From Escherichia coli (GTDB lineage Bacteria > Pseudomonadota > Gammaproteobacteria > Enterobacterales > Enterobacteriaceae): a DNA stretch of 64,000 nt. Positions 1,554-54,874 of the stretch are shown here, piece after piece. Below the pieces are notes generated by a model, which did not search any database, was not told the origin of the DNA, and worked only from the letters and a program-made list of their open reading frames with translations. The stretch lies in NCBI RefSeq assembly GCF_030384885.1, contig NZ_CP128613.1; one strand, written 5' to 3'. A program made the position numbers and the translations under genes. How positions within the stretch are numbered: the stretch's first letter is position 1; each line of letters starts with the position of its first letter.

Positions 1554-3533
1554 ATGTTTAGGTTGAACCCCTTCGTACGGGTCGGGCTGTGTTTGTCCGC
1601 TATTTCTTGTGCATGGCCTGTGTTAGCGGTCGATGATGATGGCGAAACGATGGTTGTCACCGCATCTTCCGTTGAGCAAAACCTTAAAGATGCACCCGCC
1701 AGTATCAGCGTCATTACCCAGGAAGACCTGCAGCGAAAACCGGTACAGAATCTGAAGGATGTCCTCAAAGAAGTGCCTGGCGTACAACTGACGAACGAAG
1801 GGGATAACCGTAAGGGCGTTAGTATTCGTGGTCTGGACAGCAGCTACACCCTGATTCTCGTCGACGGTAAACGCGTTAACTCCCGCAATGCCGTCTTCCG
1901 CCACAATGATTTCGATCTGAACTGGATCCCGGTCGATTCCATCGAACGTATTGAAGTGGTCCGTGGCCCGATGTCGTCGCTGTACGGTTCCGATGCGCTC
2001 GGCGGTGTCGTCAACATCATCACCAAGAAGATCGGTCAGAAATGGGCAGGCACAGTAACTGTTGACACCACCATTCAGGAACATCGCGATCGCGGTGATA
2101 CCTATAACGGTCAGTTCTTTACCAGCGGACCATTAATTGACGGCGTGCTGGGAATGAAAGCTTACGGCAGCCTGGCAAAACGTGAAAAGGATGACCCACA
2201 AAACTCAACGACCACCGATACCGGAGAAACGCCGCGTATTGAAGGATTCTCCAGCCGCGACGGCAATGTGGAATTTGCCTGGACACCGAATCAAAATCAC
2301 GATTTTACTGCCGGATACGGTTTTGACCGTCAGGATCGTGATTCCGACTCGCTGGACAAAAACCGCCTGGAACGTCAGAACTACTCCGTCAGCCATAATG
2401 GGCGTTGGGATTACGGCACCAGCGAACTGAAATACTACGGTGAGAAAGTCGAAAACAAAAACCCTGGCAACAGCAGCCCGATAACTTCCGAAAGCAATAC
2501 GGTCGACGGCAAATACACGTTGCCGTTGACGGCGATTAATCAGTTTCTCACGGTTGGCGGTGAATGGCGTCACGACAAACTTAGCGATGCGGTGAACCTG
2601 ACCGGGGGAAGCAGCTCCAAAACGTCTGCCAGCCAGTACGCGCTGTTTGTGGAAGATGAATGGCGGATCTTCGAGCCGCTGGCGCTGACGACCGGCGTAC
2701 GTATGGACGATCATGAAACCTACGGTGAACACTGGAGTCCTCGTGCCTACCTGGTTTATAACGCCACCGACACCGTAACGGTGAAAGGGGGCTGGGCGAC
2801 GGCATTTAAAGCGCCTTCTCTGTTGCAACTTAGCCCTGACTGGACGAGCAATTCCTGCCGTGGCGCATGCAAGATTGTGGGTAGCCCGGATCTGAAACCT
2901 GAAACCAGCGAAAGTTGGGAGCTGGGGCTTTACTACATGGGTGAAGACGGCTGGCTGGAAGGGGTGGAGTCCAGCGTGACCGTTTTCCGTAACGATGTGA
3001 AAGATCGCATCAGCATCAGCCGTACGTCTGACGTCAATGCTGCACCGGGCTACCAAAACTTTGTCGGTTTTACAGCGGACGGTGTGCCAGTATTCAGCTA
3101 CTACAACGTTAACAAAGCACGTATTCAGGGCGTGGAAACCGAACTGAAAATTCCGTTCAACGATGAATGGAAACTGTCGATCAACTACACCTACAACGAT
3201 GGTCGTGATGTCAGCAACGGCGAAAACAAACCGTTGTCCGATCTGCCGTTCCATACCGCTAACGGTACGCTGGACTGGAAACCGCTGGCGCTGGAAGACT
3301 GGTCATTCTATGTTTCTGGTCACTATACCGGGCAGAAACGCGCCGACAGCGCGACGGCTAAAACTCCGGGCGGTTATACCATCTGGAATACCGGCGCGGC
3401 CTGGCAGGTGACCAAAGACGTCAAACTGCGTGCGGGTGTGCTGAACCTTGGCGACAAGGATCTCAGTCGTGACGACTACAGCTATAACGAAGACGGACGT
3501 CGTTACTTTATGGCAGTGGATTATCGCTTCTGA
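1554..3533 (+). CDS. cirA: TonB-dependent catecholate siderophore / colicin I receptor
   Basis: 659-aa ORF; N-terminal signal peptide, TonB box region (ETMVVTA) and C-terminal ...AVDYRF beta-barrel terminus; matches recalled CirA sequence. Confidence 0.95.
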
Positions 3534-15805: not shown

Positions 15806-15855
15806 ATTGCCGGATGCGCCGCATCCGGCAATCGGTGCCAAATGCCGGATGCGTC
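15806..15855. repeat. REP (repetitive extragenic palindrome) elements between convergent mglC and preA
   Basis: tgccggatgcgccgcatccggca and gccggatgcg motifs. Confidence 0.7.
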
Positions 15856-19725: not shown

Positions 19726-20652
<927 letters not shown>

Positions 20653-32064: not shown

Positions 32065-32193
32065 CACAGTGAGGTGCGTGGTTATTTCAATGGGTAATAT
32101 TTGGTAGGCATGGTAAGACGTGCAAGCGTCGCATCAGGCATGGTGCGACGGATGTCGGATGCGGCGCAAACCACCTTATCCGAGGCAATGGTT

Positions 32194-33529: not shown

Positions 33530-33702
33530 CAAGTTCTTTTGCGTTGCATTGCTGGCGTAAATGTCAGCAATGCAGCATTTCCTCACGATTCTTCTTTGAC
33601 GATCGCACTTTTTGCTCGTTATGATGGCGTCGCTAGCCTCAGTAAATCCTTACTCCGGCGGTGCGCAACCTGTGCGCGTGAACCACTATCTGAATGCTCA
33701 TC

Positions 33703-34635
33703 ATGCCGAAATTTCGAGTTTCTTTATTTAGCCTGGCCCTGATGCTGGCTGTGCCTTTTGCACCGCAGGCCGTTGCGAAAACGGCAGCCGCTACCACCGC
33801 TTCACAGCCGGAAATTGCCTCCGGTAGCGCTATGATTGTTGATCTGAATACCAACAAAGTGATCTATTCGAACCACCCGGATCTGGTGCGTCCGATTGCG
33901 TCTATCAGCAAATTAATGACCGCGATGGTTGTGCTGGATGCACGATTGCCGCTGGATGAAAAACTGAAAGTGGATATCAGCCAGACGCCGGAGATGAAAG
34001 GGGTCTATTCGCGCGTACGACTGAACAGCGAAATCAGCCGTAAAGATATGCTGTTGCTGGCGCTGATGTCTTCAGAAAACCGCGCGGCGGCAAGCCTTGC
34101 GCACCATTATCCCGGTGGTTACAAAGCCTTTATTAAGGCGATGAATGCGAAAGCGAAATCGCTCGGAATGAACAACACGCGCTTTGTTGAACCGACCGGA
34201 TTGTCGGTGCATAACGTTTCAACTGCCCGTGACTTAACCAAACTGCTCATTGCCAGCAAACAATATCCGTTGATTGGTCAGTTAAGTACTACCAGGGAAG
34301 ATATGGCAACCTTCTCTAACCCGACGTATACGCTGCCGTTCCGCAATACTAACCATCTGGTGTATCGCGATAACTGGAATATTCAGTTAACCAAAACGGG
34401 CTTTACCAATGCGGCGGGCCATTGTCTGGTGATGCGTACGGTTATCAATAATAAACCGGTAGCGTTGGTGGTGATGGACGCGTTTGGCAAATATACCCAT
34501 TTTGCCGATGCCAGCCGCCTGCGTACCTGGATTGAAACCGGTAAAGTGATGCCTGTTCCGGCAGCAGCGTTGAGCTATAAAAAACAAAAAGCCGCCCAGA
34601 TGGCGGCGGCGGGGCAGACGGCGCAGAACGATTAA
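33703..34635 (+). CDS. pbpG: D-alanyl-D-alanine endopeptidase (PBP7)
   Basis: Signal peptide, SxxK motif (SISK), SEN motif (SSEN), KTG motif. Confidence 0.9.
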
Positions 34636-34815
34636 GGGTAGGCAGGATAAGGCGTTTACGCCGCATCAGGCATTCGGAGCACGATGCCTGATGCGATGCT
34701 TGCGCATCTTATCAGGCCTACAAACGTGACGCGTCCGTAGGCAGGATAAGGCGTTCACGCCGCATCCGGCATTCGGTGCACGATGCCTGATGCGATGCTT
34801 CTATTTGCATCAGGC
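34636..34815. repeat. BIME: two tandem ~60-bp units each containing REP palindromes
   Basis: aggcaggataaggcgtt(t/c)acgccgcatc(a/c)ggcattcgg(a/t)gcacgatgcctgatgcgatgctt occurs twice. Confidence 0.8.
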
Positions 34816-34827
34816 ATCCAGCCGTAT

Positions 34828-36543
34828 TTACTCCACTTCCTGCCAGTTTTTCCGCTTACTGGTTTTACCGATCCCCGGATTCATGCTGTTGGTCGGATCG
34901 TTCTCGCGATAGAACTTCTGCAACGTCTCCGGTGCTTTATACAAATGACCGACGTTATGCTCGGCAGGGTATTGCGCGCCGCGCTGCTGTAGCAGTTCCA
35001 GCATCTGTTCTTTCAACGCATGCACATCCACGCCTTTTTTAACGATGTAATCCTGATGGAAGACATAGCACATAAAATGGCCGTAATAGAGCTTGTGCAC
35101 CAGCTGGCAGTCGATCTCCGGCGGTAAATGCTCATACCACTCGGTGTCGTTACGCCGCAGAGCGATATCCAGTGCCAGAATGTCTTCGACTTCATCGGAA
35201 TGCACCGCCTGATAACGAATTGCTGCGCCCGCAGCGGCGAAACGGTGTAAAAACGCTTTGCTGCCTTCTTCCGGCGTACAGACAAAGAAATCGCCCTCGG
35301 CCTGTTTGAAATAATCCACCAGCCACGATTTAGCTTCGCCGACGCCATCGCCCGCCATTTTTAACAGCAGATGATGTTCATATTTATCGCGCCAGCTTTT
35401 CATGCGCGGTGGTAAATGGCTGGGGAACAAGTGACCGAATTTTTGCATCGCACGGTCGGTAAAATGCGGACGGAAGAATTTCACTTTCTCCAGCATCGCA
35501 TCGGTGCGTCCCTTGAGATTAAAGAAGAACGGCATCTTGTCGGTGCCTAACTTATCAATCATCAGGAAGGTGTCTTTGCCGTATTTTTCCGCAATATCGT
35601 AGATATCCCGGTGCATATATTCCCCGGCAACTGGCAGATTTTCGAAATTAGCCAGGATATGGCGGCGGATTTCGGTCAGCACTTCCGGCTGGTTGGTGCC
35701 GATATAAAACACTTGCTGATTTTTTTCTGCTTCGAAGGTATCAAGACGTACCGCAAAGACGGCCAGTTTACCGGCGCAACCGGAGGATTCAAACAGGCGA
35801 TCCGGGTCGGCGTTATAACGTGCTGGTGTGTCGGCTTCAATATCACGAACGCGGTGGACATAGTCATAATCGTGGGCGTGACGACCATCGTGGCGCACAT
35901 CGTCATCTTTGATGCGATCGTCATCCAGCTTGCTAAGGATCTGCTCCGGCGTTTCGCCGAGATCAATCCCCAGATGGTTCACCAGCGTCAGTTTGCCGTC
36001 TTCATTTATACGCGCGAATAACGACATTTCGGTATACGCCGGGCCACGCTGCACCAGCGAGCCGCCGGAGTTGTTACAGATACCGCCGATGACTGATGCG
36101 CCTATACACGATGAGCCAATCACCGAGTGCGGTTCGCGTCCCAGCGGTTTGAGGGCTTTTTCCAGCGAATAAAGCGTGGTGCCCGGATAGGCCAGCACCT
36201 GTTCGCCCTTGCCAAGAACATGTAGTTTGTCGAGACGCAGGGTGCTGATGATCACGATATCGCGATCATAGTCGTTACCGTTTGGCGTCGAGCCTTCGGT
36301 CAGACCTGTATTGGCAGCCTGCATCAGAATAATTTTGTCGGCGGTGACGCAGGCTTTCAGCACCCGCCACAATTCCAGTAGTGAGCCAGGGAAAACGACA
36401 GCCAGCGCGTCGCCCTGACCAGAACGGAAGCCCTTGCGATAGCGGGCCGTTTTTGCGGGATCGGTGAGCAGGTGTGAATGACCGACCAGACGGGCAAGTT
36501 CATTCAAAAAGGCTTTATTATCAGTTGTTGTCATGGAAGACAT
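34828..36543 (-). CDS. dld: FAD-dependent D-lactate dehydrogenase (membrane-associated)
   Basis: Start at MSSMTTTDNK; matches recalled Dld. Confidence 0.9.
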   Translation of the reverse strand: MSSMTTTDNKAFLNELARLVGHSHLLTDPAKTARYRKGFRSGQGDALAVVFPGSLLELWRVLKACVTADKIILMQAANTGLTEGSTPNGNDYDRDIVIISTLRLDKLHVLGKGEQVLAYPGTTLYSLEKALKPLGREPHSVIGSSCIGASVIGGICNNSGGSLVQRGPAYTEMSLFARINEDGKLTLVNHLGIDLGETPEQILSKLDDDRIKDDDVRHDGRHAHDYDYVHRVRDIEADTPARYNADPDRLFESSGCAGKLAVFAVRLDTFEAEKNQQVFYIGTNQPEVLTEIRRHILANFENLPVAGEYMHRDIYDIAEKYGKDTFLMIDKLGTDKMPFFFNLKGRTDAMLEKVKFFRPHFTDRAMQKFGHLFPSHLPPRMKSWRDKYEHHLLLKMAGDGVGEAKSWLVDYFKQAEGDFFVCTPEEGSKAFLHRFAAAGAAIRYQAVHSDEVEDILALDIALRRNDTEWYEHLPPEIDCQLVHKLYYGHFMCYVFHQDYIVKKGVDVHALKEQMLELLQQRGAQYPAEHNVGHLYKAPETLQKFYRENDPTNSMNPGIGKTSKRKNWQEVE

Positions 36544-54181: not shown

Positions 54182-54265
54182 TAAAAAAACCTGCTGGTGA
54201 GGCAGGTTCTTTTATTTACTACTTTCAGGCCTAACACCACGGCCTGTGCAACATCGTGTTCCAAC
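54182..54265 (-). ncRNA. orzO: Antisense antitoxin sRNA (OrzO-like) of type I TA locus
   Basis: Minus-strand promoter TTGCAA-17 nt-TATAAT (-10 at 54272-54277), 5' region complementary to toxin leader (54246-54265 vs 54412-54431, 19/20), hairpin acctgc..gcaggt + U7 terminator at 54182-54207. Confidence 0.7.
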
Positions 54266-54792: not shown

Positions 54793-54874
54793 TAAAAAAA
54801 CCTGCTGGTGAGGCAGGTTCTTTTATTTACTACTTTGACGATAACTTGCTGATTGTGCAACATTTCGTACCAAC
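54793..54874 (-). ncRNA. Second Orz-like sRNA (orphan: no cognate toxin ORF downstream)
   Basis: Intact minus-strand promoter TTGCAA(54904-54909)-17-TATAAT(54881-54886), terminator hairpin 54800-54818 + U-run; seed gtgcaacatttcgtaccaac differs from unit 1. Confidence 0.6.

Follow-up and report, generated by a model that had tools for sequence, protein, structure and literature searches.

The 64-kb window analysed here, a stretch of 64,000 nucleotides of Escherichia coli DNA, carries the pbpG gene on its plus strand (33703..34635, within an open reading frame of 33694..34635). This gene encodes the D-alanyl-D-alanine endopeptidase PBP7 and ends with a TAA stop codon at 34633-34635. On the minus strand the annotated D-lactate dehydrogenase gene, dld (34828..36543; stop codon 34830-34828), converges on pbpG, and bglX is the next gene after dld. 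A region of 100% identity was present in E. coli 2013C-4282 (NZ_CP027579.1), where yohC, pbpG (933 nt), dld and bglX are annotated. The whole pbpG-dld spacer, from stop codon to stop codon, comprised 192 nt (34636-34827). The initial annotation had placed a repeat array between convergent genes, and the facing stop codons of pbpG and dld bore this out; the array was wholly extragenic, lying between the two stop codons. At the other end of pbpG, the Rfam Peptidase-S11 RNA motif (RF03039), a known candidate cis-regulatory leader of S11-peptidase genes, was detected at 33618-33698 on the plus strand, directly upstream of and overlapping the pbpG start, with a score of 73.1 bits against a gathering score of 34.8.

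A repeat finder identified a 64-nt direct repeat in the spacer, present in two copies (34638-34701 and 34737-34800) with 95% identity and a start-to-start distance of 99 nt, and several perfect 12-nt inverted repeats inside the array. Comparison of the copies register by register gave 61 matches in 64 positions, with the likeness collapsing past 34800. The longest exact direct repeat in the 192-nt spacer was 23 nt, compared to a maximum of 10 nt and a mean of 6.6 nt in 500 shuffles of the spacer. Tandem Repeats Finder gave no report at the locus, since the array contains fewer than two full 99-bp copies. The shared part amounted to only 64 nt of the 99-bp period because the z2 REP of the second unit is truncated. 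The initial annotation had described two near-identical units of about 60 bp; the duplication was confirmed, but the period was longer, at 99 bp, and the copies were not contiguous.

Each complete unit was composed of a y REP of 35 nt, a linker of 12 nt, an inverted z2 REP of 37 nt and a spacer of 15 nt, which add up to 99 nt. On the plus strand, two nucleotides (GG, 34636-34637) separated the pbpG stop codon from the first y-type REP (GTAGGCAGGATAAGGCGTTTACGCCGCATCAGGCA, 34638..34672), in which GTAG was followed by an imperfect palindrome corresponding to the first hairpin of naRNA4. Next came a short (S-type) linker of 12 nt (TTCGGAGCACGA, 34673..34684), which aligned with the naRNA4 consensus linker, and an inverted z2-type REP with a CTAC end (TGCCTGATGCGATGCTTGCGCATCTTATCAGGCCTAC, 34685..34721), corresponding to the second naRNA4 hairpin. 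The unit was completed by a 15-nt inter-unit spacer (AAACGTGACGCGTCC, 34722..34736) that served as a signature of the locus; it was identical in Escherichia sp. MOD1-EC7003 and similar in Escherichia albertii (AAATGTGACGAACCT), in both cases at the same locus.

The second unit began with another y-type REP (GTAGGCAGGATAAGGCGTTCACGCCGCATCCGGCA, 34737..34771), a copy of 34638-34672, and a second 12-nt linker (TTCGGTGCACGA, 34772..34783) delimited from the sequence and the direct repeat. Only the 5' half of the second inverted z2 REP was present (TGCCTGATGCGATGCTT, 34784..34800), the 3' half being missing, and the sequence CTATT (34801-34805) stood in for 23 nt of it. In the allele of strain 2020CK-00188 the second z2 REP was complete (…GATGCTTACGCATCTTATCAGGCCTACGTC TGCATCAGG…), and it is these 23 nt that correspond to CTATT in the window. 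CTATT was followed by a sequence resembling the 3' end of a y REP (TGCATCAGGCATCC, 34806..34819) and then by the last 8 nt before the dld stop codon (AGCCGTAT, 34820-34827). REP-derived sequence thus reached approximately 34819, slightly beyond the end of 34815 that had initially been given. A perfect 12-bp hairpin (inverted repeat I3; 34782-34793 with 34807-34818, 100% complementary, loop of 13 nt) spanned this junction and, on the minus strand, began 9 nt after the dld stop codon.

To classify these parts, y and z2 consensus sequences were taken from the Rfam naRNA4 alignment and from the literature, independently of the locus. A REP is an imperfect palindrome of 30-40 nt with a conserved GTAG sequence 5' of the stem foot (PMC3333891). 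In agreement with this definition, GTAG was found at 34638 and 34737 and CTAC at 34718-34721, and the palindromes were 35 and 37 nt in length. The y consensus, with 34 specified bases, was matched with two mismatches at 34638-34672 and one mismatch at 34737-34771, and the z2 consensus with two mismatches over 37 nt at 34685-34721; there were no consensus matches in 100 shuffles of the window. The z2 stem was preserved, because its two mismatches compensate for one another (GACGC/GCGTC to GATGC/GCATC). The consensus search that had been proposed as a check was therefore positive for both REP types (1-2 mismatches, 0 expected by chance), and these matches, together with the inverted repeats, confirmed that each unit contained REP palindromes.

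The AA/GC internal stem mismatch of the y REP (ATAAGGCG…CGCCGCAT), which is required for TnpA(REP) binding (PMC3333891), was kept in both copies. Both y REPs also had an additional mismatch at the stem foot, a GCAGG variant (in y REP no. 1 in place of GCCGG) that gave non-standard pairs in the naRNA4 alignment and that could weaken binding by REP-recognising proteins. The repeat was dispersed and of high copy number: 5,425 of the 5,426 complete E. coli genomes contained matches to the spacer, at a median of 33 places in each, and in 4,138 genomes one place covered at least 80% of the spacer, with 80-90% identity in most records.

These findings bear on the reading that the palindromes arose by chance or constitute an ordinary bidirectional intrinsic terminator unrelated to any repeat family. 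The position between convergent genes, where terminator hairpins are expected, is in keeping with such a reading, but a terminator scan of the spacer (34636-34827) revealed no terminator-like site and no hairpin followed by a T-run. With this missing T-run, consensus matches whose chance expectation was 0, and a median of 33 matching places per E. coli genome, the reading was refuted, and its probability is negligible.

BIME-2 elements are composed of y and z2 REPs in inverted orientation with a short S linker and s, l or r flanks, and occur in multiple tandem copies that vary in number between strains; BIME-1 elements are composed of y and z1 REPs with a long L linker, often containing an IHF site, and occur as single copies (PMC3333891). 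The order in the window was y, inverted z2, y, inverted z2 (truncated). The linkers were 12 nt and the inter-unit spacer 15 nt, and there were two tandem units here and from one to three in other E. coli strains. The possibility that the array is instead a BIME-1 or RIP element, in which a y and z1 pair flanks an IHF site and acts through IHF-induced DNA bending, is consistent with the pairing of a y REP with an inverted Z-class REP. However, the linker was 12 nt rather than a long L motif, the Z REP matched the z2 consensus taken from naRNA4, and the units were in tandem, whereas BIME-1 elements are single copy (PMC3333891). Furthermore, the IHF consensus WATCAANNNNTTR was absent from the spacer, all four of its matches in the 64-kb window lying elsewhere. 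The length of the linker and the absence of an IHF site refuted a BIME-1 identity, to which we attach almost no probability.

By every criterion that could be tested on its sequence, the element is a BIME-2, and no evidence contradicting its identification as REP/BIME-2 was found. In common with other BIME-2 elements it had alternating y and z2 REPs with GTAG and CTAC ends, a short linker and a spacer of approximately 15 nt between pairs, and was tandem, extragenic and located at gene 3' ends, with a unit number that varied between strains. It differed in that its final z2 REP was cut short and ran into a y-like tail, the GCAGG foot variant was present in both y REPs, and the z2 REP had the compensatory ATGC/GCAT variant that is typical of the pbpG-dld locus. 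The BIME-2 is an already known kind of element, and neither BIME-2 arrays nor changes in their copy number are new; such arrays and their strain-to-strain variation have been described since the 1990s. Since the RefSeq records that were examined contain no repeat annotation, spacers of this type appear as unexplained structure.

The closest copy elsewhere was the aceA-aceK BIME of E. coli, with approximately 90.7% identity over 163 nt. The two arrays had the same y-linker-z2-spacer layout, approximately the same unit length and a strain-variable number of units. In contrast to the pbpG-dld array, which lies between convergent genes, the aceA-aceK BIME is located inside an operon of co-directional genes, its inter-unit spacer (AGCCGTTGCCGAAC) differs, and its y and z2 sequences are canonical.

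The Rfam naRNA4 model (RF02564) matched unit 1 (34641-34718, plus strand) with 74.2 bits, above its gathering score of 59.5, and the truncated unit 2 with 52.0 bits, below that score. naRNA4 is one y+z2 unit of REP325, and it is for REP325 RNAs only that a discrete HU-binding, nucleoid-condensing RNA has been demonstrated (PMC4550694). The pbpG-dld array had the two-hairpin y+z2 unit in common with REP325 (RF02564; PMC4550694), of which it is unit 1 that passed the gathering score; in REP325 the units number six and lie between yjdM and yjdN, and HU binding is backed by experimental evidence there. It is conceivable that the array is a functional small-RNA gene of the naRNA4 type, whose y+z2 RNA would, together with HU, bridge cruciform DNA and condense the nucleoid. 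In favour of this, Qian et al. 2015 (PMC4550694) observed that DNA was condensed in vitro by HU together with any two-hairpin RNA, naRNA4 antisense included, and since the array is located in the 3' untranslated regions of two genes it is probably transcribed. However, because the Rfam family in effect models a BIME-2 unit, the match of unit 1 shows only that it is a BIME-2; unit 2 was below threshold (52 bits), there was no promoter-like site in the spacer, this copy is missing from almost all E. coli genomes, and the reported in vivo effect was specific to REP325. We therefore regard a small-RNA gene as improbable.

To assess how common the array is, the 5,426 complete E. coli genomes were searched with the spacer and its flanks, and genomes with at least 80% coverage of this query were counted as carriers. 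The array was found at the pbpG-dld site in 20 genomes (0.4%), the remaining 99.6% being without it. Ranked coverage fell from 94% directly to 66%, the latter corresponding to the flanks alone, and the places sampled at that level were 393-397 bp long. A query with the K-12 allele could not separate empty sites, since the flanks of BIME carriers merge into one place with more than 80% coverage. The array had initially been called ordinary for E. coli; this is true of the element as a type, whereas at this particular site it occurs in only 20 of 5,426 complete genomes and is absent from K-12. Since the site is empty of it in K-12, the array is not among the catalogued REPs of that strain.

The spacer of K-12 MG1655 was 37 nt in length (GTGAATTCGGATGGCGATACTCTGCCATCCGTAATTT; L002 3187-3223) and contained a terminator-like hairpin (CGGATGGC-GATACTCT-GCCATCCG) followed by TAATTTTTAC. 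The terminator scan placed this terminator at 3194-3217 of the same record, followed by a T-run and oriented for pbpG. Nearly all remaining strains, approximately 99.6% of E. coli genomes, have the 37-nt form of the spacer with its small hairpin resembling a terminator. The K-12 rho-independent terminator and the array are alike in their location between the 3' ends of pbpG and dld and in their GC-rich hairpins; the K-12 hairpin has a T-run and is a single unit in a 37-nt spacer, whereas the BIME allele has no T-run and occupies 192 nt. The arms of the K-12 hairpin were faintly reminiscent of a y REP (CGGATGGCG… compared to GCCGGATGCGGCG…, with a common CATCC…GTA tail). The hairpin could be a decayed single y REP, the resemblance being too weak to decide.

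To determine how old the array is at this site, the pbpG neighbourhood was obtained from one genome per species and the pbpG-dld spacer was measured in each. In E. albertii the same site had a 463-nt spacer with five y REPs, the last unit of which had the same GCAGG foot and ended in a tail (…CTCCATCTGTATCCGGCATCCTGCCGTAT) corresponding to that of the E. coli GF4-3 allele. Escherichia sp. MOD1-EC7003 had at least five units, with the left junction TAAGGGTAGGC and the 15-nt spacer identical to those in the window, and its contig ended inside the array, an example of an assembly break at repeats of this kind. Spacers with y and z2 REPs were also present in Escherichia whittamii (211 nt) and in SCPM-O-B-8794, a separate species-level representative (147 nt). 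Escherichia sp. E1V33 retained a 61-nt remnant whose right tail (…GCATCAGGCATCCAGCCGTAT) was the same as in the window, and a related tail was found in E. albertii. Overall, the arrays of other Escherichia shared with the window the z2 variant, the linker, the left junction TAAGGGTAGGC or the right tail. In Citrobacter, Salmonella, Klebsiella and Enterobacter the pbpG-dld position contained REP types of their own.

Two further observations were made in these relatives. The pbpG gene of MOD1-EC7003 (L011) had a short in-frame deletion near its 3' end (…ATGGCGGCGAACGATTAA). In Enterobacter, Klebsiella, Kosakonia, Lelliottia and some Citrobacter (L013-L088), a minus-strand open reading frame of approximately 600-700 nt (plus strand TTACTCCGGCAGCGTCCAGTC…) was located between pbpG and dld; this extra reading frame was absent in Escherichia.

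Within E. coli, the carrier alleles had diverged to 93-96% identity and the array was linked to an unusual form of the neighbouring gene. The best 18 matches to the dld gene of the window among the 5,426 genomes were all BIME carriers, the other genomes listed having at most 97.8% identity, and only two of the 5,426 had an identity of at least 99%. This dld gene was 96.5% identical to that of K-12 and approximately 91% identical to those of other Escherichia species; pbpG was 98.0% identical to that of K-12, and against other species identities of the two genes were approximately 91-92%. Introgression from another Escherichia species was rejected, since both genes are plainly of E. coli type, the dld gene of MOD1-EC7003, the lineage whose array was most similar, lying outside this comparison. 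A dld segment of 200 nt, located 800-1000 nt from the stop codon, was only 90.5% identical to K-12, which suggests that dld may be a mosaic or recombinant gene.

An alternative origin is a recent insertion, in which TnpA(REP) newly moved a BIME into the empty pbpG-dld spacer of this lineage, where it was then duplicated. The absence of the array from 99.6% of complete E. coli genomes would be expected under this scenario, and two features required by TnpA(REP), GTAG and the stem mismatch, are present in the REPs (PMC3333891). In contrast to its predictions, however, the arrays of E. albertii, E. whittamii, MOD1-EC7003 and SCPM-O-B-8794 occupied the same site and had the same z2 variant, linker and junctions, the E. 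coli carrier alleles were themselves diverged (93-96% identity), and the array travelled with a divergent dld haplotype. Furthermore, the K-12 spacer was no clean empty site but held a different sequence. A recent insertion or private duplication was largely refuted by the corresponding multi-unit arrays in other Escherichia species, and we consider it very unlikely. Because arrays are present at the same site in sister species and the linked dld haplotype is divergent, the array is, on parsimony grounds rather than from a rooted genome tree, a long-standing occupant of this site in the genus, which in E. coli is found on a rare, divergent but E. coli-like haplotype. On the same grounds, the K-12-type spacer is most simply the derived state. 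As to direction, either loss from most E. coli strains or re-import into a few may account for the distribution.

The spacers of the carriers formed a series: 93 nt with one unit in four genomes, 192 nt with two units (the form in the window) in ten genomes, and 291 nt with three units in two genomes, while four genomes had a spacer of 210-211 nt with a complete fourth REP. The natural alleles with one, two and three units differed by exactly 99 bp, which substantiated the initial description of the array as tandemly duplicated. A literature search on BIME polymorphism in ECOR strains yielded nothing useful.

The two units in the window differed at three markers, namely the y loop (TTTACG/TTCACG), the y foot (CATCAGG/CATCCGG) and the linker (GGAGCAC/GGTGCAC). 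In the three-unit allele the middle unit was a composite, its y REP being that of unit 2 and its linker and complete z2 REP those of unit 1; in the one-unit allele the y REP and linker of unit 1 were joined to the truncated z2 REP of unit 2. From their sequences, the one- and three-unit forms look like the products expected of misaligned recombination between units. Units would thereby be gained or lost in exact 99-bp steps through misaligned pairing of the 64-nt homology, either by unequal crossing-over or by replication slippage. Strand exchange catalysed by TnpA(REP) is a possible alternative route. TnpA(REP) recombines BIMEs in vitro and needs a C|T dinucleotide for cleavage (PMC3333891). 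The crossover interval of the three-unit allele, GGCATTCGG, contained no C|T dinucleotide, which weakly favours, as an inference, homologous misalignment over exchange by the transposase.

The RNA of the spacer was predicted to fold with a free energy of -109.8 kcal/mol for the plus strand and -110.5 kcal/mol for the minus strand (z-scores of -8.3 and -7.8, respectively), and no shuffled sequence folded as well. Because the minimum-energy fold paired neighbouring REPs across the linkers instead of forming individual REP hairpins, the structure within the cell is uncertain. The first paired base was approximately 6 nt past the pbpG stop codon and the terminal hairpin was 9 nt past the dld stop codon. 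On transcription of either gene, the REPs would fold into very stable 3' hairpins, which should block 3'-to-5' exonucleases. REP hairpins at 3' ends reportedly protect the upstream mRNA from such exonucleases, as described by Higgins, Newbury and colleagues (reference 2 in PMC12306157). The hairpins should also attenuate read-through into the opposing gene, and so replace the intrinsic terminator that is absent from the BIME allele.

According to Liang et al. 2015 (as cited in PMC12306157), an upstream gene is translated less when a REP lies fewer than 16 nt from its stop codon. Here the first hairpin begins within 15 nt of the stop codon on either side, and PbpG and Dld may therefore be produced at a lower rate of translation. 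Gyrase cleaves BIME-2 elements in vivo, with a preference for y REPs and independently of transcription (PMC6379681). The y REPs are thus likely to be sites of gyrase binding and cleavage on the DNA, and they would be placed where the positive supercoils of convergent transcription accumulate. We infer that the array supplies both mRNAs with stable hairpins at their 3' ends and probably also offers a site for gyrase; whatever its role, it is dispensable, since 99.6% of E. coli genomes are without the array. As a whole, the explanation that the spacer carries a BIME-2 array of two 99-bp units, that the array is an old resident which changes copy number stepwise, and that it has a putative role at mRNA 3' ends and with gyrase is held with high confidence.

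The site is occupied in only 0.4% of E. coli genomes and yet also in sister species, and it thus represents a case in which, across most of a species, a simple terminator has taken the place of a REP array. A further reading of the allelic series, from zero to three units compared to the terminator, is that the rare ancestral BIME allele, because its REP hairpins start so close to the two stop codons, measurably alters the expression of pbpG and dld and that the near-fixation of the terminator reflects selection rather than drift. This reading is tentative and on balance rather doubtful. If it were true, the effect could be exerted through mRNA 3'-end stability, stalling at translation termination or recruitment of gyrase between the convergent genes. 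The natural alleles with zero, one, two and three units constitute ready material for testing the action of REPs at convergent gene ends.

Other repeats and RNA features were also encountered. Within the window, three REP-like GCCGGATGCG cores were present at 15809-15853, a y-like REP at 19727-19761 on the plus strand and a z2-like REP at 32104-32140 on the minus strand. Two OrzO-P antitoxin RNAs (RF02083) were detected on the minus strand at 54183-54258 and 54794-54867, approximately 600 bp apart, with scores of 98.9 and 90.6 bits, respectively; their arrangement suggests a tandem zor-orz type I toxin-antitoxin pair. In E. coli Z1323CEC0015, beside purK (L091 37-1385), a transposase gene of the IS3-family element IS1397, which is reported to insert into BIMEs, adjoined a BIME array that started with a truncated y REP.
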